Below, one piece after another: positions 15,209 to 51,376 of a stretch of DNA of 64,000 bases. The notes under the pieces were generated by a model. The model saw nothing but the letters and a program-made list of their open reading frames with translations. It was not told where the DNA came from and searched no databases. How positions within the stretch are numbered: the first letter of the stretch is position 1; each line of letters opens with the position of its first letter. The translations under genes were made by a program, and so were the position numbers. The stretch covers positions 23,559-87,558 of the forward strand of contig JAADIO010000048.1 in NCBI GenBank assembly GCA_013151235.1. The letters are read 5' to 3'. This DNA comes from Deltaproteobacteria bacterium. Its GTDB lineage: Bacteria; CG2-30-53-67.

Positions 15209-15209
15209 A

Positions 15210-16490: not shown

Positions 16491-16505
16491 GAATCGGGAA
16501 GAGCT

Positions 16506-19010: not shown

Positions 19011-19012
19011 CG

Positions 19013-20026: not shown

Positions 20027-20052
20027 ATCGGGTATAAAAAGGAACATTTCAA

Positions 20053-20550: not shown

Positions 20551-20559
20551 GGACACTCC

Positions 20560-21395: not shown

Positions 21396-21396
21396 C

Positions 21397-21520
21397 GGCT
21401 TTGCAAAAAGTCCGTCTGCGGCGTTTATCAGGTTTTGAGTTCATTGCGGCGTACAACGAATGTACGCCGCATTCCTCAAAACCTTCGCGCCTTGCATACG
21501 GAGCTTTTTATCGTGCCGTC
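21397..21520 (+). repeat. Palindromic MITE/REP-like element, family A, copy 1 (nuoK-nuoL spacer)
   Basis: About 124 bp, self-complementary. Central hairpin GCGGCGTACA-ACGAA-TGTACGCCGC, flanked by AGGTTTTGAG/CTCAAAACCT. A second inverted copy lies at 53419-53541. Confidence 0.75.
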
Positions 21521-21522
21521 TT

Positions 21523-21565
21523 AAAAAAGGAAAAGGTCTGATGAGACCTGACCTTTTCCTTTTTT
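21523..21565. terminator. Bidirectional intrinsic-terminator-like hairpin inside the nuo operon
   Basis: AAAAAAGGAAAAGGTC (21523-21538) pairs perfectly with GACCTTTTCCTTTTTT (21550-21565) across an 11-nt loop. The A-tract and T-tract arms give terminator geometry on both strands. Confidence 0.55.
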
Positions 21566-21581
21566 AATAAGGAGAACCTTC

Positions 21582-23537: not shown

Positions 23538-23549
23538 CAGGCGGGAGCG

Positions 23550-25058: not shown

Positions 25059-25080
25059 TATCTTTGAACGGGAGAAGAGG

Positions 25081-26529
25081 ATGACCTTGATATTGCCGCC
25101 GATTCCCAACCTGCATGCGATCACCCCGGAGATCATTGTGGTGGTGACCTCGCTTCTGGTGCTGGTGATCGATATTATTCAGCCGCGCGGGAAGAAGGGA
25201 AAGCTGGCTTTTCTGGGAGCGGTGGGGCTCGCCGCCGCCGGCCTGTCCAGTTACAACCTCCTGCAACATCCCCTTGCGGCGGATATTTCCGGCTTCTCCG
25301 TGGATGCCTATGCCCAGTTTTTCAAGATCATCTTCTGCCTGGCCGGTCTGATGGTGATCGGGATCTCTGTACGGTATCTCGACCTGGAAGGCTTCTCCCT
25401 CGGGGAATACTATTCCATCATCCTCCTCGCGATCCTCGGGCAGATGGTCATGGCCTCCGGAACGAACCTGCTGGTGATCTACGTGGGCCTGGAGCTGATG
25501 GCGATCTCCCTCTATATCCTTGCAGGCTTCTTCAAAGACCATCCCAAATCGAACGAGGCGTCGGTGAAGTATTTTCTCCTGGGCTCTTTTTCATCGGGGA
25601 TTTTTCTCTACGGGATCATGATGACCTACGGACTGACAGGAAGTCTCGATCTTTCGGTGATTGCCGGGAAGATCGAAGGTTCGCAATTCACGGGGCTTTT
25701 GCTCCTGGCCGTGGTCATGATGGGAGCGGGGTTCGCCTTCAAGATTGCCGCCGCCCCCTTCCATTTTTGGACCCCCGATGTCTATGAAGGGTCTCCCACG
25801 TCGGTGACGGCCTTCATGTCGGTCGGGCCGAAGGCGGCGGCCTTTGCGGTCCTGATCCGGGTTTTTTCCACCGCCTTTGGGAGTCTGAGAATCGAATGGA
25901 CGACCCTTTTTATCTGTCTCTCCATTGCCACGATGGTTACGGGAAATCTCATCGCGTTGCGGCAGACCAATATCAAGCGGATGCTCGCTTATTCCAGCAT
26001 CGCCCATGCCGGGTACCTCATGATCGGTTTTGTTGCGGGCGGAGAGATGGGGATCTCGAGCATGATGTTTTATCTCATGATCTATGCCTTTATGAATATC
26101 GGGGCCTTCGGTGTGGTGATCCTCCTGAACCGGGTCGGGGGGATCGGGGATCAGATCGATGATTTTGCAGGTTTGTCGAAGGTCAGCCGGGCCTCGGCCT
26201 TTGTCATGATGGTCTTCATGTTCTCCCTCGCGGGGATCCCCCCGACGGCCGGATTCGCAGGAAAGTTCTACATCTTCATGGCGGCGGTGAAGAGCGGCTA
26301 TGTCTGGCTGGCCGTCATCGGGGTCCTCAATTCCGCCGTCTCCGCCTACTATTATCTGCGGGTAATCATGCGGATGTATATGGCGGAACCGAATGGTGAA
26401 CCGGTATTGAATGTTTCTACCGCTCTTTCGGCGATTCTCCTGATCGCCGTTGTCGGTATTCTTGCCATCGGTATTTTCCCCGGTTTCTGCCTTGATCTGG
26501 CCCGTGCCTCCGTAACCTCGATTTTATAG
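25081..26529 (+). CDS. nuoN: NADH-quinone oxidoreductase subunit N
   Basis: 482-aa ND2-family antiporter-like subunit; last gene of the set. Confidence 0.94.
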   Translation: MTLILPPIPNLHAITPEIIVVVTSLLVLVIDIIQPRGKKGKLAFLGAVGLAAAGLSSYNLLQHPLAADISGFSVDAYAQFFKIIFCLAGLMVIGISVRYLDLEGFSLGEYYSIILLAILGQMVMASGTNLLVIYVGLELMAISLYILAGFFKDHPKSNEASVKYFLLGSFSSGIFLYGIMMTYGLTGSLDLSVIAGKIEGSQFTGLLLLAVVMMGAGFAFKIAAAPFHFWTPDVYEGSPTSVTAFMSVGPKAAAFAVLIRVFSTAFGSLRIEWTTLFICLSIATMVTGNLIALRQTNIKRMLAYSSIAHAGYLMIGFVAGGEMGISSMMFYLMIYAFMNIGAFGVVILLNRVGGIGDQIDDFAGLSKVSRASAFVMMVFMFSLAGIPPTAGFAGKFYIFMAAVKSGYVWLAVIGVLNSAVSAYYYLRVIMRMYMAEPNGEPVLNVSTALSAILLIAVVGILAIGIFPGFCLDLARASVTSIL

Positions 26530-30678: not shown

Positions 30679-31899
30679 TCAAGTCTTCGGTGTTTTGTGA
30701 TGGCTGGCACCGGCTTTCATGTTCCACCCATTCTTCTCACCGAGGATATCCTCTTCGTAAACGGACCGGATGATATAGATCAGGGGAGTATCCTTCAAAC
30801 GGACGACTTTGGGTACCTTGAGGCTGTGCCCCTCTGCATCATAGAGGATCTCCACCGTGGGTCGGAGAGGCCGGTCTTCACTGGTTTCGATTACCTTGCC
30901 GACTTCATTGGTATTCAGTTTCACAAACCCTTCCAGAGGGAAAACGGAAATCTTTTTGAGCAGGGTTTTGATCAGACGAGGAGCAAAAACCCCCTTTTCG
31001 CTCTCTACGATGATCTTGACGGCATCATAGGGGAGAAAACGGCGCCGTTGTGGACGAGTATGGGTCAGGGCCTCGTAGTAATCGACAAGACCGATGATCT
31101 GAGCGTACTCGTGAATCTCCTCACCGGTCAGCCCGCGGGGATAGCCTTTTCCGTTGATCCGTTCATGTTCCTGCCGGACGACCGCGGCGATCCAGGTATA
31201 GGTAGGTCCGAGCCGGGAGAGCATCTCGTAGCTGTATTCCGGATGACGTTTCATCTCCTCATATTCTTCCTTGCTCAGGACGTCTTCCTTGTTGATCAGT
31301 TCCAGATCGAGCTTGGCCATCCCGATGTCATGGAGTAACGCCACCGTGCCGAGACGGATGAGCTGGTTTTCGTTGTAGTCGAGTCCCATTCCGATTTTGA
31401 GGGAGAAAATGGCCACATTGACGGCATGAGAGACAAGGTCGGTCGAAGAGTGACGGGTATAGACGGCCTTCAGATAGAGACGGTCCGCCGCCATGAGGCT
31501 GTGAACCATCCGTACGGTACATTCGGCAATCCGTTCCGCCGAGAAGGATTCCCCTGCCTTGCCGCGATCCATGGCGATCTGCACCTGTTCCTTGGATTCA
31601 TCGTAGATCTTTTCCACATCTCCGTAGATCCACTCCCCTTCGGAACGCTTGGTTTCCACACGTTCCCGGAGGATGGACGATCGTCGGCGAAGCGCCTCCT
31701 GGGGCATCACATTCCCGATCCCCTGCTCTTCACTCTCCTTGAGGAGTTCATCGACGGAGAGGATCTCGCTCAGTTTTAGATCCCTTTTCGGAGGTTCCGG
31801 CTGTTCCATTTTCGGAGTTGCAGCCGGATCGGTGGGAGAAGAGGAGGGAGCCGATTTTGTTGCATCGGACTCTTTCAGAATATCCGTGATTCGTACCAT
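30679..31899 (-). CDS. HD-GYP domain protein with unassigned N-terminal region
   Basis: HDIGMAKL, HPEYSYEML and HERINGKGYPRGL motifs. About 140 aa of uncharacterised N-terminus. Confidence 0.85.
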   Translation of the reverse strand: MVRITDILKESDATKSAPSSSPTDPAATPKMEQPEPPKRDLKLSEILSVDELLKESEEQGIGNVMPQEALRRRSSILRERVETKRSEGEWIYGDVEKIYDESKEQVQIAMDRGKAGESFSAERIAECTVRMVHSLMAADRLYLKAVYTRHSSTDLVSHAVNVAIFSLKIGMGLDYNENQLIRLGTVALLHDIGMAKLDLELINKEDVLSKEEYEEMKRHPEYSYEMLSRLGPTYTWIAAVVRQEHERINGKGYPRGLTGEEIHEYAQIIGLVDYYEALTHTRPQRRRFLPYDAVKIIVESEKGVFAPRLIKTLLKKISVFPLEGFVKLNTNEVGKVIETSEDRPLRPTVEILYDAEGHSLKVPKVVRLKDTPLIYIIRSVYEEDILGEKNGWNMKAGASHHKTPKT

Positions 31900-31911
31900 A
31901 ACAAAACTCCC

Positions 31912-32709
31912 TTATAAAGAACCGTGGGCGGATTTTTCCACGATTGCACTATTGATGAAATTGACACTCTCTCCGCATCCGATCAGGAGGCTTAAGTCAC
32001 AGATATTGTTGATCTTCCGGGGAATCCCGCAACTGAAATCATAGATCTTACGGAGGGCATCGTTCGTGAACATGTTCCGTCTTGCTCCTGCTTTCTTGAG
32101 ACGGAAAAAGATGAATTTGACCATCTCCTTCACATCGAGAGCCTGGAGGTGATAACGAATGGCGATCCGTTGATTGAGTTGAGTAATATGTTCGATCTTC
32201 TCTTTCAGTTCCGGCTGGCCGATGAGAATCAGCGTCAGCAGAAAACGGTCATTGAGCTGAAAATTCAGCAGCAGCCGCAATTCTTCGAAGGTGTGTTCAC
32301 TGTTGATCAACTGGGCTTCATCAACAATGATGACGGAGTTTTTTCCCTCGTTGAGGTTCTGATAGAGATGATCATTCAACCGATGAATCATCTCCCGCCT
32401 GGATTCGTTCGTTGTCTCCATCCCGAACTGGTAGAGAATTTCCCGGAGAAAATCTTCCGATTCCAGGCAGGGGTTTTCAATCAGAGCAATCTGATAGTTC
32501 CGTTTCACCAGCCGTTGGACAAGAAGCCGGCTGATGGTGGTCTTCCCGCAGCCGATCTCTCCCGTCAGCATTGCCGCACCTTTGCGGCTTTCAATCGCGT
32601 AGATCAGACGGGTCAGAGCCTCTTCGTGAAGCGGCGACTTGTAGAGGTACCCGGGATTGGGAAGGTTTTCGAAGGGGTATTCGATGAGGCCCCAGTAATC
32701 TTTGTACAT
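31912..32709 (-). CDS. ExeA/GspA/MshM-like AAA ATPase
   Basis: Walker A GEIGCGKTT, Walker B IIVDEAQ, LILIGQPEL block typical of the ExeA family. Confidence 0.75.
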   Translation of the reverse strand: MYKDYWGLIEYPFENLPNPGYLYKSPLHEEALTRLIYAIESRKGAAMLTGEIGCGKTTISRLLVQRLVKRNYQIALIENPCLESEDFLREILYQFGMETTNESRREMIHRLNDHLYQNLNEGKNSVIIVDEAQLINSEHTFEELRLLLNFQLNDRFLLTLILIGQPELKEKIEHITQLNQRIAIRYHLQALDVKEMVKFIFFRLKKAGARRNMFTNDALRKIYDFSCGIPRKINNICDLSLLIGCGESVNFINSAIVEKSAHGSL

Positions 32710-32859: not shown

Positions 32860-33834
32860 TCAGGGAGTTGGAGGGAGAAACTTGCGGAGTTTCCTGAGGA
32901 TCTCGTTGGTATAGCGGAAAAATTCGTCGGCAACGATGGCGACCCAGAGTCCTTTTTCGCCCCGCTCTTCCAGAACTTTCATTCCGTAGACGGTCATCCC
33001 GGAGGAAGGCCCTGCGACAATCCCTTCCCGGCATATCATTTCCACCAGGGTGCGATAGGCATCGTCGGAGTCGACGAGGATTTTTTCATCGATGATCGAT
33101 TCATCATAGATCTCCGGCTTCATCGTGTATTCCGTGTTGCGCAGACCGTAAAACTCGTGGCTCTGCTCACTCGGTTCCACGGAGATGATCCTGATCTCCG
33201 GGTTCTTTTCCTTCAGGTATCGGCCCACCCCGGTGATGGTGCCCCCGGTGCCGACGCCGCTGATGAAGTGGGTGATCTTTCCGGCCGTCTGCGCCCAGAT
33301 CTCCGGTCCCGTCGTTTGAAAATGGATCTCCGGATTATGACGATTTCCATACTGATAGGGAACCATATGATCGGGCAGGTTCTTGTAACCGAAGGCGGCG
33401 GCAATGGCTCCTTCTCCGGGGAAACGGGGGCAGGCGTCATCGGGGCTTAAATCCATCGAGGAGGTCGTCAGGGTCAGCAGCGCCTTCTTGCCGGCGGGGA
33501 TCTGCTCCCCCGAGGTGATCACCGGCTTCTTGTATCCTAAAAGGTTCAGAAAAACGCTGAGGGCCACCCCCGTGTTTCCCGATGTCGGTTCGACACAGGT
33601 GGTCTCCGGCTTCAAATCACCATCTTCAATGGCGCCGGTAATCATGCCGAAAGCGGTCCGGTCCTTGATCGATCCCACGGGGTTGAAAAATTCCAGTTTC
33701 GCGCAGGCGATCCGATCCTTCTTCGGTTCAATAACATGATTCAGGCGCACCAAAGGAGTGTCCCCGATCAGCTCGGTGATGTTGTTGTAGATCCCCCGAT
33801 GTTTCAGCGGTGGTCTGGTATGCTCTGTCATCAT
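32860..33834 (-). CDS. Cysteine synthase family PLP enzyme (CysM/CysK-like)
   Basis: GDTPLVRL and NPVGSIKDR (PLP lysine) motifs. 324 aa. Confidence 0.88.
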   Translation of the reverse strand: MMTEHTRPPLKHRGIYNNITELIGDTPLVRLNHVIEPKKDRIACAKLEFFNPVGSIKDRTAFGMITGAIEDGDLKPETTCVEPTSGNTGVALSVFLNLLGYKKPVITSGEQIPAGKKALLTLTTSSMDLSPDDACPRFPGEGAIAAAFGYKNLPDHMVPYQYGNRHNPEIHFQTTGPEIWAQTAGKITHFISGVGTGGTITGVGRYLKEKNPEIRIISVEPSEQSHEFYGLRNTEYTMKPEIYDESIIDEKILVDSDDAYRTLVEMICREGIVAGPSSGMTVYGMKVLEERGEKGLWVAIVADEFFRYTNEILRKLRKFLPPTP

Positions 33835-33912
33835 CTCTCCTTTCCGGCACCCGGCGGGGAGGATTCTTCCGTTCTGTCATATAAGAAGCCGCCGGTTCAT
33901 ACAGATGAAGCG

Positions 33913-34155
33913 TCACTTTTTCTTTGCAATTATTTGCCAGTCCGTTTCGTTGACGGCGCTGACTTCCAGCACCTCGTGTCCCTCCCCCCTGAGACTGCGG
34001 GGCACGTTTTCCGTGGCGGGCTGATGGTCCACGATGATTCTCAGTATCTCGCCGGCCGAGAGGGTCTCCAACGCCAGTTTCGTCTTGACGAAGGTGTAGG
34101 GACAGACTTCTCCTTTGATGTCCAGTTCCCTGTCGATCTTGTATGGATCGTTCAT
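33913..34155 (-). CDS. TusA/SirA-like sulfurtransferase
   Basis: 80 aa; LDIKGEVCPYTFVKTKLAL carries the conserved Cys-Pro. Confidence 0.8.
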   Translation of the reverse strand: MNDPYKIDRELDIKGEVCPYTFVKTKLALETLSAGEILRIIVDHQPATENVPRSLRGEGHEVLEVSAVNETDWQIIAKKK

Positions 34156-34233
34156 GAAGTTTTCTCCTCATAATATCATTTCCCGTTCCCTGCCGGAATC
34201 CATGAGAGGTGATTGATCCCCCCCGCCGGAGCG

Positions 34234-34500
34234 TCACCAGCAGATTACGGCATCCGCCTCCAGAAGAAGGGAAACAATGGCATCATAGTCTACGAGTTCG
34301 CCTGTGATCGACTTTCCTCTCGCCTCGACGTCGTCCCGGCAGGCATAGACCTTCTCGATCCCTTCCACCGGAGTCAGCACGGCATCATGGAGGAGGAGTA
34401 CGGAAACCTCGGCTCCGGCCGCCTGTTCCTCCAGGATTTCAACGGCATAAGGATCCTGCCGGCTTTTGAGAACATGGAGGATTTTTTTCGGCATACCCAC
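34234..34500 (-). CDS. DsrH/TusB-like protein
   Basis: 88 aa with VYACRDDVEARG. Third gene of a TusD-C-B-ordered trio. Confidence 0.6.
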   Translation of the reverse strand: MGMPKKILHVLKSRQDPYAVEILEEQAAGAEVSVLLLHDAVLTPVEGIEKVYACRDDVEARGKSITGELVDYDAIVSLLLEADAVICW

Positions 34501-34504
34501 TCCC

Positions 34505-34849
34505 TCAACAGCCGATTACAAGATCGCTCCCGGCAAGGATCTTGCCGAGGGTACGACGATTCTCCCGGGTTACGGGGAAGACGGTCTCGACGATGCTCCG
34601 CTCCGCCATTGACTCCTTCTCCGCCAGAAAGGGACACCCTAATTCCCGGAGAGTCCGCACATGGCGGTGAATTTCGGACAAACCGATCCTCTCCGGTGCC
34701 GGGGCCTGCAGGAGAAAGACCCCTTCTTCGGCCAGCACGATCTTGACCCTATTCCCGGAAAGCGTCATCCCCAGGGACATGCGGAGCATTTCCGAGATAA
34801 ACATTCGTTCCAGGGGCGGTTTCCGTAGAAGTATGACGAGCTCTTTCAT
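34505..34849 (-). CDS. DsrF/TusC-like protein
   Basis: 114-aa DsrE-fold-like sequence in the middle of the trio. Confidence 0.6.
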   Translation of the reverse strand: MKELVILLRKPPLERMFISEMLRMSLGMTLSGNRVKIVLAEEGVFLLQAPAPERIGLSEIHRHVRTLRELGCPFLAEKESMAERSIVETVFPVTRENRRTLGKILAGSDLVIGC

Positions 34850-34860
34850 GAATATTTGCC

Positions 34861-35175
34861 TCAGTGAAAGGAGAGGAACGCATCGCCCTTCGCGACCATT
34901 TCCGACAGATCATACTGACTGCCGAAGAGGACCCCCTCCCGGCGGGGCACTTTTCTTTGGTCGGCATCGTAGGCACAGAGAATAATCTCCACCCCCCGGT
35001 CCGCAAGTTCCATGAAATCGTCCCGGAGAATATGGTAGACCCCGTCGTACATCAGAAAGATCCGGACCCGGTGCCCCTGCCGGAGGGCCGCTTCCGAGAT
35101 CTTCATCACGGTCCGGCGATTTTCACTTTCCGGGCTGGAGGTCAGCAGAAGACCGATCGCAGCGGACTTGCCCAT
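34861..35175 (-). CDS. DsrE/TusD-like protein
   Basis: 104 aa from the internal ATG (MGKSAAIGLLLTSSP). Conserved Cys in ILCAYDADQR. Confidence 0.62.
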   Translation of the reverse strand: MGKSAAIGLLLTSSPESENRRTVMKISEAALRQGHRVRIFLMYDGVYHILRDDFMELADRGVEIILCAYDADQRKVPRREGVLFGSQYDLSEMVAKGDAFLSFH

Positions 35176-35648
35176 TATGCATAACTCCCTTCCCGGAATT
35201 GTTTCCGGGGGATGATCCTCAATCGCTCTTCCCGGAAGGATCTCTCCTGCGGCTCCAAAACCCAGGACCTTGACGATGGGTCTTTCCCCTCGATGACTGA
35301 AACAATCAGATAGGAATATTCGTTCCATGCACGGTGAAGATCCACGGAGGAGGGGAGGGAAGGCCCATCGGGATGAGAGTGATAAAAGCCGAGGATCTCC
35401 CGACCGGCCTTTCGGGCCTCCCGGTCTACCCGCAGGAAGTCTCTTCCGTCGATCGCATAACGGTCACATCCCCGAAGGTGTTCGCGGTTCTTTGTCGGAA
35501 AATTTTTTTCAACCCGTTTCTCTTTCCCCAACCGGCCGACGAGAATTCCGCAACATTCCTGAGGATATTCCCGGACGGCCTGCCGATGGATGCGTTGAAG
35601 AAGAGAGGGGGAAATCAGGAGTGCGGTCAAGAATGGATCACCTCGCAA
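35175..35648 (-). CDS. JAMM/MPN+ metalloprotease (Mec+/HcyD-like)
   Basis: EYPQECCGILVG and HSHPDGPSLPSSVD (the ExnHxHx7Sx2D motif). The start codon is uncertain (TTG). Confidence 0.85.
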   Translation of the reverse strand: MRGDPFLTALLISPSLLQRIHRQAVREYPQECCGILVGRLGKEKRVEKNFPTKNREHLRGCDRYAIDGRDFLRVDREARKAGREILGFYHSHPDGPSLPSSVDLHRAWNEYSYLIVSVIEGKDPSSRSWVLEPQERSFREERLRIIPRKQFREGSYA

Positions 35649-35663
35649 GGGGACGGAAAGCCG

Positions 35664-36470
35664 TCAGAAGTTTACCCGGCAGAATTCTTCATAATCGATC
35701 AATTCCGTAATGGTCGGATGCTCCCCGCAGACGGGGCAGCCGGGATCTTTCCGCACCTTGATGGTCCGGAACTCCATTTCCAGCGCCTCGTAATTCAGCA
35801 TCCGGCCCTGCAGAAGTTTTCCCGTCTTCAGGATCAGCTTCAGAACTTCCGTCGCCTGAAGCAGACCGATCACGCCGGGGAGAACCCCGAGAACCCCCGC
35901 TTCTTCACAGGAGGCCGTCATCCCCGGCGGGGGCGGCTCCCGGAAGAGACAGCGATAACAGGGACCCTCTCCGGGGAGAATGGTCATGACCTGACCGGTA
36001 AAACGGAAGACCGCTCCGTAGGAGAGGGGCTTGCCGGTCAGGACACAGGCGTCATTGACAAGATAGCGGGTCGGAAAATTGTCGCTCCCGTCGACAACAA
36101 TGTCATAGCCCTGAAGGATCTCCAGAATATTCTTTGAGGTCACCCGCTCCTGATAGGTCGTTACCTCCACGGCCGGATTCAGCGCTTCCAGGGTTTCTTT
36201 GGCGGAGAGTGCCTTGTTCTTCCCCAGGTCCGTCATGCTGTGTACCACCTGCCGTTGCAGGTTGCTCAACTCCACGTGGTCGCCGTCGACAATCCCGATC
36301 TTTCCCACGCCTGCGGCGGCGAGATAGTAACCTACCGGCGCCCCGAGACCTCCGCCTCCGATCATCAACACACGGGCATCACGGATCTTTTTCTGGCCTG
36401 CTCCCCCGACCTCCGGGAGAAGAATATGCCGGCTGTAGCGCTTGATTTCGTCTTCCGAAAAGTCAAACAT
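35664..36470 (-). CDS. MoeB/ThiF-family E1-like adenylyltransferase (no rhodanese domain)
   Basis: YSRHILLPEVG, GGGGLGAP nucleotide loop, CYRC and CPVC zinc pairs. It ends at 268 aa. Confidence 0.9.
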   Translation of the reverse strand: MFDFSEDEIKRYSRHILLPEVGGAGQKKIRDARVLMIGGGGLGAPVGYYLAAAGVGKIGIVDGDHVELSNLQRQVVHSMTDLGKNKALSAKETLEALNPAVEVTTYQERVTSKNILEILQGYDIVVDGSDNFPTRYLVNDACVLTGKPLSYGAVFRFTGQVMTILPGEGPCYRCLFREPPPPGMTASCEEAGVLGVLPGVIGLLQATEVLKLILKTGKLLQGRMLNYEALEMEFRTIKVRKDPGCPVCGEHPTITELIDYEEFCRVNF

Positions 36471-36472
36471 TT

Positions 36473-36697
36473 TCAGTTGCGTTCCTCCACGTTCACGTGC
36501 ATCGTTCGTAAAAACGAGACTGCGCGCTCGATCTCCTTTTCCTCACCCTCCAGTTCCAGGAGGACCCATCCTTCCTGTTCCGTTACCGCCGCCTGAAAGA
36601 TGCTGGTCACCACCTTGAATTCGTGACCGATCCGATAGATGACCGGTTCCTGAATCAACTCGTCGGAAAAGGTCAGACTGATCATTTTCTTCGCCAT
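36473..36697 (-). CDS. Stand-alone NIL-domain protein
   Basis: 74 aa. ISLTFSDELIQEPVIYRIGHEFKVVTSIFQAAV...GWVLLELEGEE follows the pattern of the MetN C-terminal NIL domain. Confidence 0.72.
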   Translation of the reverse strand: MAKKMISLTFSDELIQEPVIYRIGHEFKVVTSIFQAAVTEQEGWVLLELEGEEKEIERAVSFLRTMHVNVEERN

Positions 36698-36721
36698 ATC
36701 ATTGCTCCCCGTCCTCCACCG

Positions 36722-36958
36722 CTATTCGATCACATCCATTACGACCGGTTCGACCCGCACGTCCTGTGACTTCAGGTATTCCATGGCCCGGCCGATCTCT
36801 TCCGGTTCCCCTTCCAATTCCAGCCCGACAACCCCGATCTCGTCGGTCACACTGGCACAACGAATGTTGGTCACCACATTGAACTTGTGACCCACATGAT
36901 AGATCAGCGGCTCCCGGATCAGTTTGGGGGGAAAGGTCAGATAAACTTTACGTTTCAT
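36722..36958 (-). CDS. Stand-alone NIL-domain protein (paralogue)
   Basis: 78 aa. VYLTFPPKLIREPLIYHVGHKFNVVTNIRCASV...GVVGLELEGEPEE. ATG at 36958 after GGAGG. Confidence 0.72.
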   Translation of the reverse strand: MKRKVYLTFPPKLIREPLIYHVGHKFNVVTNIRCASVTDEIGVVGLELEGEPEEIGRAMEYLKSQDVRVEPVVMDVIE

Positions 36959-36960
36959 CC

Positions 36961-37236
36961 TCAACCTCCTGCAATGGCGGGAACGATGGAAAGAGCGTCC
37001 CCGTCCTTGATCTTTGTTTCCAGATCGTTCAGAAACCGGATATCCTCGTCATTGAGATAGACGTTCACGAATCTTCGCAATTTCTCATTCTCATCGCAGA
37101 TTCGTTCCTGAATGCCGGAATATTGCTTCTCCATGTTCGAAATGATTTCCCGAACCGTTTCCCCTTCAGCGGTCACCTCCGATGCGCCATCGGTCAGTGA
37201 TCGAAGCGGCGTTGGAATTCTGATTGTTACGGACAT
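36961..37236 (-). CDS. ThiS/MoaD-fold sulfur-carrier protein (CysO-like), C-terminal Gly-Gly
   Basis: 91 aa, ends AIAGG-stop. IPTPLRSL...YSGIQERI...RFVNVYLNDEDIRF...DGDALSIVPAIAGG closely resembles my recollection of CysO. ATG after GGGAGG. Confidence 0.85.
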   Translation of the reverse strand: MSVTIRIPTPLRSLTDGASEVTAEGETVREIISNMEKQYSGIQERICDENEKLRRFVNVYLNDEDIRFLNDLETKIKDGDALSIVPAIAGG

Positions 37237-37273
37237 TATTGACCTCCCATGTTTCAGTTTTTTAGATGTTTTA

Positions 37274-38515
37274 TCATAACCGGGACTGATTTTCCAGCAA
37301 AAGGGCTTCAAAGGAGTCGAGCCTGGAATCGATCACCGGGTGGGGATGCAACCGGCCGACGAGGGCTTCCTGAGTTTTCAGGCCATTTCCTGTAATGGAA
37401 ACCACGATCGATTCGTCGCGGGGGATCTTTCCCTGTTCAATGAGTTTTTTCGCCGCCCCCAGGGTGACCCCGCCGGCGGTTTCCGTGAAGATCCCTTCCG
37501 TCTCCGCCAGCAGTTTGATCGCTTCGATGATCTCATCGTCGGTGACCTCTTCTCCCCACCCTCCCGAATCGGTCATGGTCCGGATGGCGTAGAACCCGTC
37601 CGCAGGATTTCCGATGGCCAGCGATTTGGCGATGGTGTCCGGTTTGACCGGTTTGAAAAGCTCCGTCCCTTTCTTCACGGCCGTTACAATCGGGGAGCAG
37701 CCGGTCGCCTGGGCTCCGAACATCTTCGTGGGGCTCTCCTCCACCAGACCGATCTTCGCCATCTCCTGAAAGGATTTCTTCAGCTTGGTGATCAGCGAAC
37801 CTCCGGCCATCGGCACCACCACATTCTGCGGAAGCCGCCACCCTAATTGCTCTGCGATTTCGTATCCGAAGGTTTTGGATCCTTCCGCATAGAAGGGACG
37901 AAGATTGATGTTGACGAATGCCCACCGGTGTTGGTCGGCCACTTCGGTACAGAGCCGGTTTACATCGTCATAGTTCCCTTCGACCCCCACGAGGTTCGTC
38001 CCGAAGACCTGCGTTCCCATAATCTTTCCCTGCTCCAGGTCGGCCGGGATGAAGACGTAGCTCTTCAGACCGGCGGACGAAGCACAGGCCGCCACGGCAT
38101 TGGCCAGATTCCCCGTCGATGCGCAGGCAATCGTGTCGAAGCCGAACTCCTTTGCTTTCGAGACCGCCACGGCGACCACCCGGTCCTTGAAGGAGAGCGT
38201 TGGGAAACTGACAGCGTCATTCTTGATATAGAGTTCCGAGACGCCGAGTTTGTGCGCCAGGTTTTCCGCCCGGACGAGAGGCGTATAACCGACGTTCTCT
38301 CCTACGGTCGGTGCTTCATCCAGGGGGAGCAGTTCCAGATAACGCCACATGTCCGGCGGCCGGGCCATGATCTTTTCACGTGACAAGACGTCGGCAATCT
38401 CATCATATTGATAGACCACTTCCAGCGGCCCGAAACAGAACTCACAGATATTGATCGGATCCTTGGGGTATTCTCTTCCGCATTCCCTGCATTTCAAACC
38501 CTGTACATAACCCAT
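37274..38515 (-). CDS. Threonine-synthase-family PLP enzyme with N-terminal zinc ribbon
   Basis: CRECG...CEFCFG ribbon. PTLSFKDR (PLP lysine). 413 aa. Confidence 0.88.
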   Translation of the reverse strand: MGYVQGLKCRECGREYPKDPINICEFCFGPLEVVYQYDEIADVLSREKIMARPPDMWRYLELLPLDEAPTVGENVGYTPLVRAENLAHKLGVSELYIKNDAVSFPTLSFKDRVVAVAVSKAKEFGFDTIACASTGNLANAVAACASSAGLKSYVFIPADLEQGKIMGTQVFGTNLVGVEGNYDDVNRLCTEVADQHRWAFVNINLRPFYAEGSKTFGYEIAEQLGWRLPQNVVVPMAGGSLITKLKKSFQEMAKIGLVEESPTKMFGAQATGCSPIVTAVKKGTELFKPVKPDTIAKSLAIGNPADGFYAIRTMTDSGGWGEEVTDDEIIEAIKLLAETEGIFTETAGGVTLGAAKKLIEQGKIPRDESIVVSITGNGLKTQEALVGRLHPHPVIDSRLDSFEALLLENQSRL

Positions 38516-38532
38516 TTCCCTGTCCCTTTCAT

Positions 38533-38976
38533 TTAGATCTGATACATATCCCGGGAAAGACTCTCCCGCTTTTTTTCTCGCTCCGCAACATCTTCCAGAG
38601 TGATTGATTTCAGATGATTCACGATCTTCTCATTGACTTCGCCCCAGATATCACGGGTCACACACCGGTCCGACCGTTGGCAGAAAGAGCGGTCTGCCAC
38701 ACACTCCGTCAAGCTGAAGGCGCCTTCCAGCACGGTGATAATCGTGTAGAGATCAATTTCAGCGGGTGACCTTGCCAGGTGATAACCGCCGTGCGGCCCC
38801 CGGGTACTCTTGACCAGACCGCCGACCCGCAAGGGAGTGACCAACTGCTCCAGATACTTCACGGAGATTTCCTGCCGTTTCGAAACCTCTCGAAGGAGGA
38901 TCGGGCCTTCTCCGAAATGAAGTGCAAGATCGAGCATGAATCGTGTGCCGTATCGTCCCCGTGTTGAAAGTTTCAA
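38533..38976 (-). CDS. Rrf2-family transcriptional regulator (IscR/CymR-like)
   Basis: MKLSTRGRYGTRFMLDLA and GGYHLARSP. Three C-terminal Cys (CVADRSFCQRSDRC). TTG start. Confidence 0.9.
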   Translation of the reverse strand: MKLSTRGRYGTRFMLDLALHFGEGPILLREVSKRQEISVKYLEQLVTPLRVGGLVKSTRGPHGGYHLARSPAEIDLYTIITVLEGAFSLTECVADRSFCQRSDRCVTRDIWGEVNEKIVNHLKSITLEDVAEREKKRESLSRDMYQI

Positions 38977-39074
38977 TGGTCCAGGCCCTCTTAGTAGCTT
39001 ATTATCCCTATCTGTTTAGTCAAGTTAAGATACTCGAAATAAAAAAGGGTGTCAAGCAATTTTTTTAAGAAAAT

Positions 39075-39641
39075 TTAAAGAATAATCTGATCGAGGGGAC
39101 GTTTCGGCACATGGTGTACGTCCGTCTCATCCCGCCAGTAGCGGATATTCCCATCAGCCCCGACCTCCTCGATGACCACTTTTTCCTTCGGCCTGCCGAT
39201 GGCCAGGACCAGAAGAATTTTGTAGCGATCCGGAATTTCCAGGGATGCCCGCAGTTTCTCCCGCCGGATCGAGCCGATCATGCAGCCGCCCAACCCCTTT
39301 TCCACGGCTCCGAGGAGAATCGTCTGGGCTGCAATCCCGTGATCACATCCGAAGTCCTTGACGATATTCGTATCCCCCAGGATGACGATATAGGCCGCCG
39401 GTCGTTCCCCCGGCGCCGGTCCTTTCCACTCTTTGAGATAACCGGCCCAGGCAAGATGGGGGAAGATCCGGGCGTTTTGTTCCGGCTCGCAGGAAAGAAG
39501 ATATTTCAGGGGTTGCAGATTGGCCGCCGCAGCGCTGTGACGCGCCAGGTCGACCAGTTTTCGCAAGGCCTGCATGGAAACGGTCTCCCCTTCATAAAAA
39601 CGGCGATAACTTCGGTTCCGGTATACCAGATCCTTGAACAT
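39075..39641 (-). CDS. Nitroreductase-family protein
   Basis: RNRSYRRF and AANLQPL motifs. ATG at 39641 preceded by GGGAGGA. Confidence 0.8.
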   Translation of the reverse strand: MFKDLVYRNRSYRRFYEGETVSMQALRKLVDLARHSAAAANLQPLKYLLSCEPEQNARIFPHLAWAGYLKEWKGPAPGERPAAYIVILGDTNIVKDFGCDHGIAAQTILLGAVEKGLGGCMIGSIRREKLRASLEIPDRYKILLVLAIGRPKEKVVIEEVGADGNIRYWRDETDVHHVPKRPLDQIIL

Positions 39642-39717
39642 CCTTATTCCTCCCTTCTTGGTCAAACTGATAACAGCTCATGATTATAAAGCAGGTGTTC
39701 CGAATTGTCACCCCAAC

Positions 39718-44036: not shown

Positions 44037-45089
44037 ATGAATTTTTCAGGCCGTTGTCTGGGGACCGGCATCGGCAGTCTCCCTTTTACCGATGTACAAA
44101 AGGCGTGTGCGATCGTCCGGGAGCATCTTCCCGAGATCCCTTTCTGGCCGCAGCTTCCGAAACTCGGTTTTCGGGAGCAGATGGTCCCGCAGTATTCCGA
44201 GGCCTTCCCCGGCATCGTCATCGACCTGGAGAGAGAAAAGATTTCCGTGGATTCCAATCGGGCGTTGGCGGAGCTGGAACGCTTCTATGAAAAGGAAATG
44301 GCGGGGGAGGCGGATCACTTCCGGCTCTCCCCGGACTATGCCGCAGGTTTGACCCCCTTTATCGAGGGGCTGCGGGAGGAACGACCGTCGGAGCTGATCT
44401 GTACCAAGGGGCATGTCACCGGTCCGGTAACCTTCGGATTCTCCGTAAAGGACGAAGAGGGGAGGGCGATCTTTTACGATCCCAACCTGCAGGATGCCGT
44501 CGTCCGCCTGATCGCCATGAAGGCGCTCTACCAGATTGAACGGCTCAGGGAATTCCATGTACCCACGATCATCTTTATGGATGAGCCCTATATGGCGGCC
44601 TTCGGGACCACGGGGATGAACGTCGGCCGGGAGGAGGTCGTGCAGTCTCTCAACGGAGTGGTGAAACGGATTGGTGATGCGGGCGGGATTGCCGGGGTTC
44701 ACTGCTGCGGAAATACCGACTGGTCCCTCCTTTTTGAAACGGATGTTGATATCGTAAATTTCGATGCCTATGATTTCATGGACCGGATGGCCCTCTACCC
44801 CGAAGCGGTCAAGGCCTTCTTGAACAGGGGGGGCAATCTTGCCTGGGGGATCGTGCCCACCTCTGCGGCCGTTCGGGAAGAGACGGCTGAATCCCTTGCA
44901 GGTCGGTTCCGGAATGGGTATGACAAACTGGTTTCTCTCGGTGTCGATGCCCGACGATTACGGACCCAATGTCTGGTGACGCCGGCCTGCGGATTGGGGA
45001 GCCTCTCCGAAGCGGATGCCCTCCGGGCCCTCGGCCTCGTCCGGGATCTTTCCCTGCATCTCCGGTCGGAGTTCGGATCGGCGGGGTAG
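44037..45089 (+). CDS. Short MetE-like / URO-D-like TIM-barrel protein (candidate core methionine synthase)
   Basis: 350 aa. VHCCGN and VTPACGLG resemble the zinc-ligand motifs of the cobalamin-independent methionine synthase C-terminal domain. Confidence 0.55.
   Translation: MNFSGRCLGTGIGSLPFTDVQKACAIVREHLPEIPFWPQLPKLGFREQMVPQYSEAFPGIVIDLEREKISVDSNRALAELERFYEKEMAGEADHFRLSPDYAAGLTPFIEGLREERPSELICTKGHVTGPVTFGFSVKDEEGRAIFYDPNLQDAVVRLIAMKALYQIERLREFHVPTIIFMDEPYMAAFGTTGMNVGREEVVQSLNGVVKRIGDAGGIAGVHCCGNTDWSLLFETDVDIVNFDAYDFMDRMALYPEAVKAFLNRGGNLAWGIVPTSAAVREETAESLAGRFRNGYDKLVSLGVDARRLRTQCLVTPACGLGSLSEADALRALGLVRDLSLHLRSEFGSAG
45043..45089 (+). repeat. Left copy of a 47-nt imperfect direct repeat (3' end of the MetE-like gene)
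   Basis: 38 of 47 nt identical to 47786-47832, including the first 22 nt. Both copies end in a stop codon. Confidence 0.85.
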
Positions 45090-45599: not shown

Positions 45600-46559
45600 A
45601 TGAAAAATAATTTGAAGTCATTGAGCCATCAGTTGACCGATCAAATCAATGCACAACGAGGGGGCGGCGGAAAATGGCCGTCGCATTTCGATTATACGGT
45701 TGACCTTGAGAACCGCCGGATCACCCTGGATGCTCGCAAAAAAATCAATAAGTCGGGTTACCGCTGCTTAGACTCCTGGGGTATGGCTCTTTTTCACTAT
45801 GTATGCAATGACCAGCATCAAGAGATCAGGGAAATCCGGTTTTGTATCAACAAGAATGGATCAGCACGGGAACCGAATACCGAGGCCTTCAAACGAAGGG
45901 TTTCGTTTCTTTCCATCAATAACGAGGAGATTGATTTCAGGGTCATTCATAATCACCGTCAGATCGGTCTCTACTCCAGGAAAGAGCTTTTTGAGAGGCC
46001 GGCGAATGAAAAGATACACACTGTCTTGAACAAGAGAGGAGATGATGACAGGGGAGAGCGGATTGAAAAAGATTTCCAGACTTTCTTGTTCGGGAAAGGT
46101 CTCAAAACCAGAACGAATGACCGGCTTGCAATATTGGGGGAGCATTTCTTCCTGTTAAAGAAGAAAAAGTATGGGGTTCTGAGGGAGTTCCCGACGGGCG
46201 TATTCCTGGACAGCGTTTCCAAGCTCAACATGATCATGCCCACTGAATTTGTCGATATCGTGACGCTCAACCGCAGAGGATATTTGTCTGTGATCGAATT
46301 GAAATTGGACGATGTGAAATTGGAAGTCATGTCGCAACTGTTGGACTATGCGCTCTATTTCGCTTGTTACAGAAAGGAAATTCTGAAGCTCCTGGGAAAA
46401 TATTCAGAGATCAGACCGAAGAGAAAGATGATCATGTGCTATGTGGTAAACAATCGGTTCCATCCACGGTTCGATGACGTCTTTCGCTATTACAGCACCA
46501 AAAACAAATCCTACAGCTTCAGAATCTTTAAGGTCGTATTGGGAGACACATGTGAGTGA
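45600..46559 (+). CDS. Hypothetical protein with C-terminal PD-(D/E)xK (NucS/RecB-like) nuclease motif
   Basis: 319 aa. About 40-45% GC by hand count. EFVDIV-x11-SVIELK-x11-QLLDY (D219, E233, K235). The N-terminal 150 aa are unassigned. Confidence 0.55.
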   Translation: MKNNLKSLSHQLTDQINAQRGGGGKWPSHFDYTVDLENRRITLDARKKINKSGYRCLDSWGMALFHYVCNDQHQEIREIRFCINKNGSAREPNTEAFKRRVSFLSINNEEIDFRVIHNHRQIGLYSRKELFERPANEKIHTVLNKRGDDDRGERIEKDFQTFLFGKGLKTRTNDRLAILGEHFFLLKKKKYGVLREFPTGVFLDSVSKLNMIMPTEFVDIVTLNRRGYLSVIELKLDDVKLEVMSQLLDYALYFACYRKEILKLLGKYSEIRPKRKMIMCYVVNNRFHPRFDDVFRYYSTKNKSYSFRIFKVVLGDTCE

Positions 46560-46761
46560 TGCAAAGATCAAAAACGACTATGCCGAATACATAGCCCGGT
46601 TGACTCGGCAATTGTGGGCCTATCAGCAAAGCCATTTCCCCCGGTGGGAAGAGTATCTTGAAAAGCCCGAAGATGGTACAGGCAGGCCGCCTGTGTTTCT
46701 CAAGGAGAAAGCCGAGGGGAACGGAACCTCTTGGGGTCAGACTTTGTTGTTTTTATATTGA
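46552..46761 (+). CDS. Short ORF, probably the 5' remnant of a gene truncated by the REP/RAYT element
   Basis: GTG overlaps the upstream stop (GTGAGTGA). The last codons (WGQTLLFLY-stop) are encoded by the left REP. Confidence 0.3.
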   Translation: MSDAKIKNDYAEYIARLTRQLWAYQQSHFPRWEEYLEKPEDGTGRPPVFLKEKAEGNGTSWGQTLLFLY

Positions 46762-47777
46762 CACCGGCATACGAATCTGTTATCGATTTACAATGGCCAG
46801 GAAACCTCGGGTACAATATCAGGGAGCTTTCTATCATGTTATTGCCAGGGGCAATCAGCGTCAAAAGGTCTTCCTTGATGACGAAGATTACCAGCAGTAC
46901 CGGAACCGCCTGATCACCTACCAGAAACGCTATTGCTGTACGTTCTATGCTTACGTCCTTATGTCAAACCATGTTCATCTGTTGATTGAACAGGGGGAAA
47001 CAGACCTATCCAAAATCATGCAAGGGCTTCAGCAAAGTTACACCATGTACTTCAACAAAAAGTACGGCAAGACAGGTCATCTCTTTCAAGGAAGATACAA
47101 AGCCATCATCTGTGACAGGGATGCCTATCTGTTAGAACTGATCCGGTATATACATCTGAATCCTGTTCGAGCGGGAATTACAAAGTTGCCGGACGACTAT
47201 ATCTGGAGTAGCCACCATGCATATCTCTCAGGGAGGTCCTCGTTTTGGCTTGAAGTAGAAATGCCGCTGGCCTGTTTGGCGAAGAGCAGAAAGAAAGCGG
47301 TTTCTTTATATAAGGATTTTATCAATGTTGCAGTAAACGATGGGTATAGAGAAGACCTCTATGAAGTCAAAGAACAGCGTTATCTTGGAGAAGACAAATT
47401 TGTAGAAAAGTTAGAGAAGCGGTTTGTCAGGGGAAAACCAATACGTTTTCCTGTTGCTCTGGACATGGATGCACTTGTTGTGAAGATCGGAAGGTCTTTC
47501 AAGGTGCCCGTTGGGAGGATAATGGACCACACTCGAAGCAGAGATGCTGCATTGTGCAGAGCTGTGACGGCCTATGTTGCGAAGGAAGTGGGAAGCATTA
47601 CTTTGGGGGAGGTGGCACGCTACTTTGCTCGGGACCCGGTGTCCATAAGTATCGGGGTGAGAAAGCTCAGAGAGAGGTTAGAAGATGATGCTGAACTTGC
47701 TGCACAAATGAATAGGATAGAGAAGTCTTTAAGAAAAGGGCGGCGAGTAAAATATAAAATTAGCAAAGTCTGACCCC
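46733..47777 (+). mobile_element. RAYT gene flanked by inverted REP sequences
   Basis: GGGGTCAGACTTTG (46733-46746) and CAAAGTCTGACCCC (47764-47777). The inverted repeat extends to about 27 bp. Confidence 0.78.
46793..47773 (+). CDS. REP-associated tyrosine transposase (IS200/Y1-like) with C-terminal DnaA-C-like HTH
   Basis: YHVIARGNQRQKVF, MSNHVHLLI (HUH) and YIHLNPVRAG. The C-terminus TLGEVARYFARDPVSISIGVRKL resembles the DnaA domain IV HTH. Confidence 0.8.
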   Translation: MARKPRVQYQGAFYHVIARGNQRQKVFLDDEDYQQYRNRLITYQKRYCCTFYAYVLMSNHVHLLIEQGETDLSKIMQGLQQSYTMYFNKKYGKTGHLFQGRYKAIICDRDAYLLELIRYIHLNPVRAGITKLPDDYIWSSHHAYLSGRSSFWLEVEMPLACLAKSRKKAVSLYKDFINVAVNDGYREDLYEVKEQRYLGEDKFVEKLEKRFVRGKPIRFPVALDMDALVVKIGRSFKVPVGRIMDHTRSRDAALCRAVTAYVAKEVGSITLGEVARYFARDPVSISIGVRKLRERLEDDAELAAQMNRIEKSLRKGRRVKYKISKV

Positions 47778-47785
47778 AGGACTTG

Positions 47786-47832
47786 GGGATCTTTCCCTGC
47801 ATCTCCGTGCGGAGTTCAGCCCGGCGGATTGA
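47786..47832 (+). repeat. Right copy of the 47-nt direct repeat
   Basis: Encodes GDLSLHLRAEFSPAD-stop, versus RDLSLHLRSEFGSAG-stop in the left copy. Confidence 0.85.
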
Positions 47833-47882
47833 TGCCGCACCCTGAATCTTCATCTTCATTTTTTTTCCAGAACGAAATATTC

Positions 47883-47911
47883 TTGACATCCGTTTTGGAA
47901 CATGGTCTAAT
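47883..47911 (+). promoter_or_regulatory. Sigma-70-like promoter (TTGACA-N17-TCTAAT) upstream of the csp leader
   Basis: Perfect -35 at 47883-47888; weaker -10 at 47906-47911. Confidence 0.4.
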
Positions 47912-47962
47912 GCCGTGCAAGTAGAGGGTTGTGCAGACTTATCATCGTGAATTGGTAACATG

Positions 47963-47993
47963 AAAGCCGCCCGATTATACGGGTGGTTTTTTT
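47963..47993 (+). terminator. Intrinsic-terminator-like hairpin within the csp 5' region
   Basis: GCCGCCCG-ATTATA-CGGGTGGT followed by seven T. It lies between the predicted promoter and the ATG at 48059. Confidence 0.55.
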
Positions 47994-48058
47994 CCCACTG
48001 AACGGTTGAGGTTGCACATGGATTTACGGTTTGGATCCTGAGAGGAAAAGGAGAAGAG

Positions 48059-51277: not shown

Positions 51278-51376
51278 TCTTGCCTCCTTGACAGAAATAT
51301 CCTGCACTGATATTTTGGTGCAAAGATACAAATAACGATACAGGCTTTCATATTGTATATCATGAAAGGAGAGGGG

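Follow-up and report, generated by a model that had tools for sequence, protein, structure and literature searches.

A 64,000-nucleotide stretch of DNA from Deltaproteobacteria bacterium (contig JAADIO010000048.1 of assembly GCA_013151235.1, hereafter the window) carries twelve minus-strand genes at positions 32860-38976 that form a real single operon. With a probability of roughly 0.6, we read this as an Rrf2-controlled operon that would serve the synthesis of sulfur amino acids via a protein thiocarboxylate; a thiocarboxylate system serving two pyridoxal phosphate (PLP) enzymes is the best-supported functional reading of its genes. In the direction of transcription, they encode an Rrf2-family regulator, a ThrC-fold PLP enzyme (ThrC-like), a CysO/MetO-type sulfur carrier, two stand-alone NIL-domain proteins, a MoeB/ThiF-type E1 adenylyltransferase, a JAMM protease, a trio of small DsrE-, DsrF- and DsrH-like subunits, a TusA-family sulfurtransferase, and a PLP enzyme of the CysK/CysM/CBS family (CysK/M-like). 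The core chemistry is known. As far as the literature could be searched, the sulfur feed through TusA and the DsrEFH-like relay and the two small NIL proteins are undescribed in this setting, so the operon represents an undescribed variant in which a rhodanese-less E1, TusA, a divergent trio, two NIL proteins and both PLP enzymes stand together under Rrf2.

The twelve open reading frames (ORFs) fill approximately 6 kb in the ORF list of the window, and all operon coordinates given below refer to the minus strand. Start codons were chosen by the presence of ribosome-binding sites, with three junctions checked by eye, and the resulting intergenic distances from 5' to 3' along the operon were 17, 37, 2, 24, 2, 15, -1, 11, 4, 78 and 78 nt. 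The stop codon of the JAMM gene overlaps the start of the DsrE-like gene (TAATG; -1 nt), and the GGAGG within the final carrier codons is the ribosome-binding site of the first NIL gene, whose ATG is at 36958. The two widest gaps, of 78 nt each, flank TusA and set off the TusA and CysK/M-like genes. A consensus scan detected a single promoter-like site, upstream of the Rrf2 gene, and no terminator-like sites between the operon genes on the coding strand. The sequence-only reading of this DNA, made before any database search, had described twelve co-oriented and closely spaced genes, and the ORF list bears this out with gaps of -1 to 78 nt. Its family calls were likewise confirmed by Pfam and NCBIfam, for the DsrH-like protein with scores just under the curated cut-offs, and none of the small proteins had to be reassigned to an unrelated family.

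The complete twelve-gene order recurs in at least eight metagenomic lineages. The full layout of the window was found in loci L081-L084, L088/L089, L090, L094, L095 and L097, and the partial locus L098 starts at the DsrE-like gene. The small subunits in these loci are only 49-64% identical to those of the window, and the order is kept even down to 49-55% identity. Because the same order was found in independent metagenomic contigs with diverged small subunits, the arrangement is not a product of chance.

The ThrC-fold enzyme (37274-38515; Pfam PALP, E = 4.6e-71) is predicted to be a MetM-type homocysteine synthase. The catalytic lysine motif SFKDR is present in its translation, and its score against the NCBIfam model PRK08197, 'threonine synthase', is 303.5 bits with a cut-off of 303. 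The protein also has an N-terminal CxxC...CxxC zinc ribbon (Pfam zinc-ribbon match NinF), which is extra to the solved ThrC structures, as these match residues ~52-402 only. A homologue scan limited to one genome per species yielded over 500 relatives, of which the 80 best (59-69% identical) constitute the locus survey, and the gene content of these 80 loci was derived from hidden Markov model iteration with the twelve window proteins on the locus ORFs. The loci span Nitrospirota, Omnitrophota, anammox and other Planctomycetota, Methylomirabilota, Aquificota, Thermodesulfobacteriota, Poribacteria, Actinomycetota and one archaeon. A carrier gene is present in 72/80 loci and directly follows the ThrC-like gene in 70 of them; ThrC-like, carrier and NIL genes occur in that order in 52/80. 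An E1 gene is present in 46 of the loci, a CysK/M-like gene in 37, TusA in 13 and a DsrE-like gene in 2. The window protein shares 60% identity with actinobacterial ThrC-like genes that likewise stand just before a carrier gene (L072 and L074). At least 8000 protein clusters match it at E < 1e-100, and every named one is called threonine synthase. Its closest named relatives, at approximately 70% identity, are from metagenome-assembled genomes (MAGs) labelled 'bacterium', Deltaproteobacteria or Thermodesulfobacteriota.

The pairing of a ThrC-like enzyme with a carrier has a characterized counterpart. In Streptomyces albulus, MetM/MetO forms homocysteine from O-phosphohomoserine and a carrier thiocarboxylate (Hasebe et al. 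2024, as reported in 10.1101/2024.10.14.618325 and PMC12172450), and MetM is often misannotated as threonine synthase (GapMind 2026 preprint, 10.1101/2024.10.14.618325). Judged by homology and gene order, the ThrC-like/carrier pair of the window most likely represents the MetM/MetO route, which is known and widespread, and it is quite likely that homocysteine is made through the MetM-type enzyme. In both systems, a ThrC-homologous PLP enzyme stands beside a GG-ended ThiS/MoaD-family carrier, an E1 and a JAMM hydrolase complete the cycle, and the enzyme is annotated as threonine synthase. For Streptomyces, the preprint names the E1 as MoeZ and the hydrolase as Mec (10.1101/2024.10.14.618325). 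In contrast, the window E1 lacks a rhodanese domain and shares its operon with TusA and the DsrEFH-like trio, an Rrf2 regulator is found here instead of the S-adenosylmethionine (SAM) riboswitch of S. albulus, and the window adds two NIL proteins and the CysK/M-like enzyme. MoeZ has a rhodanese domain, and both MoeZ and Mec are shared with other pathways.

Two further observations were made on the ThrC-like genes of the survey. In loci L010, L012, L013, L016, L020, L022, L023, L026, L027, L032 and L033, a second ThrC-like gene follows NIL (ThrC-like, carrier, NIL, ThrC-like); these loci are Nitrospirota, including Thermodesulfovibrio and Magnetobacteriaceae MAGs. ThrC-like homologues of ~60% identity also occur in Aquificota (L045, L059, L060, L079 and L080; Aquificaceae, Aquifex aeolicus), and Aquifex aeolicus was listed as lacking every known homocysteine pathway (Price et al. 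2018). A link between the two is suggestive only, because the carrier is adjacent only in L045 among the Aquificota loci.

The carrier (36961-37236, 91 amino acids; Pfam ThiS, E = 1.5e-16) starts 37 nt after the ThrC-like gene and ends in ...PAIAGG, exactly at the Gly-Gly. It was matched over its full length to Mycobacterium tuberculosis CysO (3dwg_C, E = 8e-26) and to 4n6e_B (E = 6e-27). The Gly-Gly at the domain end is kept in 72/72 carriers of the surveyed loci; 23 of these stop at GG, and the others carry tails of 1-99 residues. The E1 (35664-36470, 268 amino acids; Pfam ThiF, E = 1.7e-84) consists of a ThiF domain at residues 12-247, with neither a rhodanese domain nor a C-terminal extension. 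It contains two CxxC pairs and the SCEEAGVLG cysteine, and it falls below the equivalog cut-offs of the NCBIfam models MoeB, UbaA and MoeZ. The JAMM/MPN+ metalloprotease (35175-35648; Pfam Prok-JAB, E = 6.2e-25) is predicted to be a Mec+-type hydrolase, and its motif, read from the translation as HSHPDGPSLPSSVD, is intact (E31 plus HSHx7Sx2D). These proteins resemble the CysO-CysM-Mec+-MoeZ system of M. tuberculosis, in that the carrier matches CysO over its full length with a GG end and the cluster contains a JAMM protein and a CysK/M-fold enzyme. They differ from it in that the window E1 is not fused to rhodanese and so is not of the MoeZ type, the CysK/M-like protein is not specifically CysM-like, and the operon also has a MetM-type enzyme, NIL proteins and a persulfide relay.

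A carrier, an E1 and a JAMM protease could also constitute a ubiquitin-like conjugation system, of the archaeal SAMP/UbaA/desampylase or the Thermus TtuB type, instead of or besides carrying sulfur, and would then modify the enzymes encoded nearby or other targets. SAMPs and TtuB have both conjugation and sulfur-carrier roles. The window carrier scores above the NCBIfam SAMP1 cut-off (63.2 vs 60), and UbaA and desampylase rank first or close to first among the models for the E1 and the JAMM protein. However, the scores with these two models are far below their cut-offs (355 vs 450 for UbaA; 74.9 vs 130 for desampylase), and the match of the carrier to CysO (E = 8e-26) is much stronger than its match to a SAMP1 homologue (E = 1.5e-6). 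Moreover, the genes conserved alongside encode PLP sulfhydrylase-type enzymes and persulfide carriers rather than components of a proteasome or of target recognition, and we regard a conjugation system as very improbable here.

The reading as a sulfur-carrier system requires that sulfur reach a rhodanese-less E1, and the genes for TusA and the trio bear on this point. TusA (33913-34155, 80 amino acids; Pfam TusA, E = 1.3e-21) is a TusA/SirA-family sulfurtransferase whose CP-motif Cys18 (GEVCPYTF) is invariant in 24 homologues. The short DsrE/TusD-like subunit (34861-35175, 104 amino acids; Pfam DsrE, E = 5.3e-10) gave an AlphaFold model with a pLDDT (predicted local distance difference test) of 96, and Foldseek matched the model to YchN (1jx7, template modelling (TM) score 0.86) and DsrE (2hy5_A, TM 0.83). 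Its Cys67 is invariant in 18 sequences and aligns with the active-site Cys78 of TusD, in 'NICVAAALRRG' of 2d1p_A. The DsrF/TusC-like subunit (34505-34849, 114 amino acids; Pfam DsrE, E = 3.9e-6, 27.5 bits, above the cut-off) matches Allochromatium vinosum DsrF (2hy5_B) at E = 3e-8 with its family profile. As in DsrF, the canonical active-site position holds no Cys; Cys72 sits five residues upstream. The DsrH/TusB-like subunit (34234-34500, 86-88 amino acids; Pfam DsrH, E = 1e-4, below the cut-off) is matched weakly, over the full length, by TM0979 (E = 6e-4) and DsrH (2hy5_C, E = 4e-3) with its family profile. Its Cys54 (YACRDDxEARG) is invariant and occupies the DsrE-type site, at which DsrH carries Leu and TM0979 carries Ile. 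When the DsrE-like and DsrF-like proteins were searched against the PDB as single sequences, only noise was returned, and the matches came from the family profiles.

The trio is rare. Only 17 clusters of the E-type and 10 of the H-type subunit were found in a 5.8-billion-protein word index, and an exhaustive search of 1.84 billion representatives with the DsrE-like profile yielded 378 matches at E<=1e-3 and 111 at E<=1e-10. A ThiF-type E1 adjoins the trio in every retrieved locus that reaches the neighbouring gene. Reduced modules without a PLP enzyme were found as ThiF-TusA-DsrE-DsrF-DsrH in a Ca. Methanoperedens MAG (GCA_004298585.1; L086:2356-4287) and as ThiS-ThiF-DsrE-DsrF-DsrH in L092:1737-4007, and these show that the E1-linked trio extends to archaea and to settings other than amino acid clusters. 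A reduced form of another kind, ThrC-like–carrier–E1–DsrE–DsrF, is present in L008 and L021.

The E1 genes of the surveyed loci follow a related pattern. All of the E1s are short except two, and where a cluster has just one short E1, TusA or DsrE is nearly always present. Nitrospira and relatives (L043-L078) have a uniform layout of CysK/M, MoeB, ThrC-like, carrier, NIL, MoeB and JAMM genes; these Nitrospira-type clusters contain two short rhodanese-less E1 paralogues and no TusA. In a previous study, carrier-JAB-E1 neighbourhoods with a rhodanese-less E1 always included SirA (TusA), and SirA was proposed to stand in for rhodanese (Iyer, Burroughs and Aravind 2006; PMC1779556). Our survey fits this proposal, because nearly all clusters with a single short E1 have TusA or DsrE. 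We consider it slightly favoured that TusA and the trio deliver persulfide sulfur to the E1-bound carrier adenylate, as the gene neighbourhoods suggest.

Compared with the known relays, TusA-TusBCD-TusE of E. coli and TusA-DsrEFH-DsrC of A. vinosum, the window likewise has TusA and three consecutive genes in E/F/H order, a DsrE fold whose Cys coincides with Cys78 of TusD, and a second subunit matching DsrF. In contrast, the window subunits are strongly diverged as well as shorter (104, 114 and 88 amino acids), an invariant Cys of the H-type subunit takes the place of the Leu of DsrH, and no TusE/DsrC acceptor is present, the constant neighbour being a ThiF-type E1. A second comparison can be made with the HcyS-HcyD-HcyF-MetY cluster of Wolinella succinogenes and the 'type 4e' ThiS/MoaD-JAB-E1-SirA clusters (PMC1779556), which, also in connection with sulfur amino acids, combine a rhodanese-less E1, SirA/TusA, JAB and a carrier. 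Those clusters carry sulfate/sulfite reduction genes and an O-acetylhomoserine sulfhydrylase, whereas the window has no reductase, has a homocysteine enzyme of the ThrC fold and contains the DsrEFH-like trio. A locus of Deltaproteobacteria bacterium GWC2_42_11 (L096:7001-15341) has the same core and no Dsr-like trio; its genes encode a ThrC-like enzyme, a small sulfite reductase (NIR_SIR + Fer4), TusA, ThiS, NIL, a CysK/M-like enzyme, JAB, ThiF, a radical SAM protein and a Na/sulfate symporter. With the small sulfite reductase module in the place of the trio, different sulfur-supply modules seem to plug into one conserved core.

The same persulfide proteins could be put to another use. TusA, the DsrEFH-like proteins, the E1 and the carrier might serve a different thio-cofactor or tRNA thiolation of the 2-thiouridine, molybdopterin or thiamine type, and the PLP enzymes would then be ordinary threonine and cysteine synthases that share the operon. 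TusA-TusBCD is the 2-thiouridine relay of E. coli, and TusA also influences molybdenum cofactor synthesis; in addition, the ThiF-TusA-DsrEFH module of Ca. Methanoperedens lacks a neighbouring PLP enzyme, and the databases all name the ThrC-like protein threonine synthase. On the other hand, Pfam and NCBIfam detected no MnmA, TtuA/NcsA, MoaE, ThiG/ThiH or TusE/DsrC in the cluster, and the position of the ThrC-like gene next to the carrier in 70/80 loci from many phyla is hard to square with a housekeeping threonine synthase. The N-terminal zinc ribbon of the ThrC-like enzyme, missing in solved ThrC structures, also speaks against this use, which appears improbable.

Whether cysteine is a second product depends on the CysK/M-like enzyme, a predicted cysteine synthase (32860-33834, 324 amino acids; Pfam PALP, E = 1.9e-51). 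Its motifs are intact, namely the SIKDR lysine and the TSGNTG and GVGTGGT loops, and its scores with the NCBIfam models cysKM, cysM and cysK are all below the cut-offs. Its PDB matches are distributed evenly over CBS, CysK and CysM, with CBS, CysK and E. coli CysM at ~1e-50 to 1e-54 and M. tuberculosis CysM (3dwg_A and 3dki_A) at ~1e-44. Within the DsrE-bearing clade, the protein is 80-92% identical, and it is 34-40% identical to the CysK/M genes of other clusters. The formation of cysteine and homocysteine from one carrier is supported by the survey, because a CysK/M-type gene lies beside the ThrC-like/carrier pair in 37/80 loci. However, the two-product idea is only plausible, since the enzyme shares no more than this 34-40% identity with those elsewhere and is no closer to M. 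tuberculosis CysM than to CysK or CBS. The chance that cysteine is also made from the same carrier falls, in our judgement, a little short of even.

The same evidence admits a homocysteine-only operon in which TusA and the CysK/M-like enzyme provide a separate entry for inorganic sulfur. TusA would bring thiosulfate or persulfide to a CysM-type enzyme to give S-sulfocysteine or cysteine, and the carrier of the MetM-type reaction would then draw its sulfur from this cysteine or from the relay. Thiosulfate is a substrate of E. coli CysM, and TusA scores best in NCBIfam with YedF and with TsuB/YeeD, a protein of thiosulfate utilisation, though below both cut-offs. The TusA and CysK/M-like genes are set off by the two largest gaps, and the CysK/M-like protein belongs to another lineage than the CysK/M proteins in other ThrC-like clusters (34-40% identity) and is no closer to the CysO-dependent CysM of M. 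tuberculosis than to ordinary CysK, CysM and CBS. Against such an entry, L086, L087 and L092 have TusA/DsrEFH-like genes and a ThiF E1 without CysK/M, so the primary link of the TusA/DsrEFH-like proteins is with the E1. The occurrence of a CysK/M-like gene beside the ThrC-like/carrier pair in 37/80 loci of many phyla also suits a second consumer of the carrier better. We consider a separate entry for inorganic sulfur unlikely.

The two NIL proteins, NIL1 (36722-36958; Pfam NIL, PF09383, E = 5.7e-13) and NIL2 (36473-36697; PF09383, E = 1.8e-15), are stand-alone domains that are 52% identical to each other, and both score above the Pfam cut-off. Their PDB matches are the C-terminal domains of MetN (for NIL2: 2qsw, E = 1e-3; 3dhx; 3dhw). 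The MetN C-terminal domain binds methionine for trans-inhibition. Because NIL follows the carrier in 52/80 loci, it is a conserved component of the core and not a peculiarity of the window. A single ORF encodes carrier and NIL as a fusion in four of the 80 loci (L008:3622-4152, L034:11264-11812, L036:3032-3472 and L038:6331-6903), with NIL beginning a few to ~20 residues after the conserved ...PAIAGG. Such fusions suggest that NIL and the carrier are direct physical partners. Since NIL follows the GG end in the fusion lineages, the Gly-Gly of their carriers would have to be exposed by JAMM proteolysis; a JAMM gene is also present in L008, L034 and L038, and none was seen on the 3.5-kb contig of L036.

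NIL domains have been linked to this area of metabolism before, as the DUF39 pathway to homocysteine, though unrelated, requires NIL-ferredoxin proteins (PMC5764234). The window proteins share the domain family with MetN and the NIL-ferredoxins and again occur in a methionine/homocysteine context; they differ in being two stand-alone paralogues without an ABC ATPase or ferredoxin, and other lineages fuse NIL behind the GG of the carrier. A ligand-sensing or capping module that acts on the carrier or the E1 is a possible role, though a rather doubtful one. A broader proposal, which we advance tentatively, is that the trio and TusA are a dedicated persulfide-delivery module for rhodanese-less ThiF/MoeB-type E1s in bacteria and archaea, operating without DsrC/TusE, and that NIL is a ligand-sensing cap or partner of the carrier, removed by JAMM where fused, which would give end-product control of carrier activation.

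The sequence-only reading had presented the combination of genes as apparently new, and this stands in part. The ThrC-type enzyme with a carrier is known from MetM/MetO, TusA beside a rhodanese-less E1 was described in 2006, and NIL after the carrier is common in the survey. The DsrEFH-like trio linked to an E1 and any role of NIL are undescribed in the searchable literature, and the arrangement is not mentioned in the Geobacter metallireducens genome paper or in the archaeal survey of ubiquitin-like proteins.

The first gene of the operon encodes an Rrf2-family transcription regulator (38533-38976; Pfam Rrf2, E = 1.2e-37) with three clustered Cys residues (C..x7..C..x5..C). It scores above the NCBIfam rrf2_super cut-off, and its scores with IscR (133 bits) and CymR (126 bits) are both below the equivalog cut-offs. 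Rrf2 is also the first gene in L081-L084, L088, L090, L094 and L097. A promoter-like site and a conserved block lie upstream at 38993-39055: TTGACA at 39055-39050 is followed after 17 nt by TATCTT, and the alignment of upstream regions revealed a conserved block of ~33 nt, ACTTGACTAAACAGATAGGGATAATAAGCTACT, around the -10 region (39025-38993). TTGACA and the core GATAGG.ATA.TAAG are invariant in the upstream regions of six loci whose proteins are 55-95% identical, and the block is a good candidate for the operator of the Rrf2 regulator. We also compared the block with the CymR and IscR boxes; it is a poor match, and neither assignment was adopted. An Rfam scan detected no riboswitch, SAM or other, and its sole match was one tRNA.

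From homology and gene context, on which every step rests, the following pathway can be proposed. TusA would pick up sulfane sulfur as a persulfide on Cys18 and pass it to the DsrEFH-like complex, where Cys67 of the DsrE-like subunit, and possibly also Cys54 of the DsrH-like subunit, would accept it. The rhodanese-less MoeB-like E1 would adenylate the C-terminal Gly-Gly of the carrier, and the relay persulfide would convert the acyl-adenylate into the carrier thiocarboxylate, so that TusA and the trio would replace the fused rhodanese domain of MoeZ and Uba4. The MetM-type ThrC-like enzyme would couple the carrier thiocarboxylate with O-phosphohomoserine, and the CysK/M-like enzyme would probably do likewise with O-phosphoserine or O-acetylserine. 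After an S-to-N acyl shift, the JAMM protease would hydrolyse the carrier-amino acid amide to homocysteine or cysteine and the regenerated carrier. For the two NIL proteins, the likeliest though doubtful role would be ligand sensing or capping at the carrier or the E1.

Several points weigh against this pathway. The DsrH-like call is below threshold with both model sets (Pfam DsrH, 22.9 vs 24.4 bits; NCBIfam TusB, E = 1.2e-7, 31.8 vs 49.2). Canonical DsrEFH and TusBCD pass sulfur to DsrC or TusE, and neither protein was matched by Pfam or NCBIfam among the twelve products; the related trio loci show none either. The donor that loads TusA is not encoded in the cluster, and if this donor were a cysteine desulfurase, cysteine synthesis by this route would be circular. 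The CysK/M-like protein is not demonstrably orthologous to the CysM that depends on CysO. In vitro, a cyanobacterial MetM homologue behaved as a threonine synthase/deaminase and was not a clear MetM (PMC12172450). Finally, S. albulus metM is preceded by a SAM riboswitch (PMC12172450), unlike the operon of the window, where the Rfam scan detected none.

Other genes around the operon were also recorded. Just upstream of the Rrf2 gene in L094 (L094:4709-5836) are an Aminotran_5 (cysteine desulfurase-like) gene and an HMA-domain gene, and the former is a possible sulfur donor for TusA. In the window, a nitroreductase-family gene lies upstream of the operon (39075-39665, minus strand), and downstream are genes for an AAA_22 ATPase and an HD-GYP-type (HD_5) protein (30679-32709, minus strand). 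All of these are syntenic in L081-L084, and the nitroreductase is also found in L097; they are probably mere neighbours, because they are missing from the more distant copies of the operon. The remaining window is an ordinary chromosomal context with complex I genes, uvrB, pyrF, znuABC and an IS200-like transposase. The complex I (nuo) set occupies 15180-26529 on the plus strand. Its NuoF-like gene lies at 15180-16490, its NuoG-like gene, whose product contains a complete molybdopterin oxidoreductase domain, at 16506-19010, and the genes for three antiporter-type subunits at 21582-26529. At 46658-47773 (plus strand), one gene joins an IS200-like Y1 transposase domain to a DnaA-C-type helix-turn-helix, and the segment that holds this gene, 46001-48000, has the lowest GC content of the window (0.458). 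The ZnuABC transporter genes follow at 48374-50980. Three plus-strand ORFs of 319-350 amino acids (44037-45089, 45600-46559 and 51353-52351) had no Pfam matches at E<=1e-5.

In summary, most genome annotation still misses protein-thiocarboxylate routes to cysteine and methionine, and the label 'threonine synthase' on the named homologues leads to false predictions of auxotrophy in large groups such as Nitrospira, anammox Planctomycetes, Omnitrophota, Aquificota and Thermodesulfobacteriota. The locus joins a whole pathway in one operon and suggests a specific answer to the question of how rhodanese-less E1s obtain sulfur. It also offers a first genomic handle on the function of the NIL domain outside the MetN transporter, and its compact size of ~6 kb and its small proteins suit direct reconstitution in vitro. 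If the proposed role is true, the module would be a previously unrecognised protein-thiocarboxylate route that joins a relay of the DsrEFH/TusBCD type to ubiquitin-like carriers.

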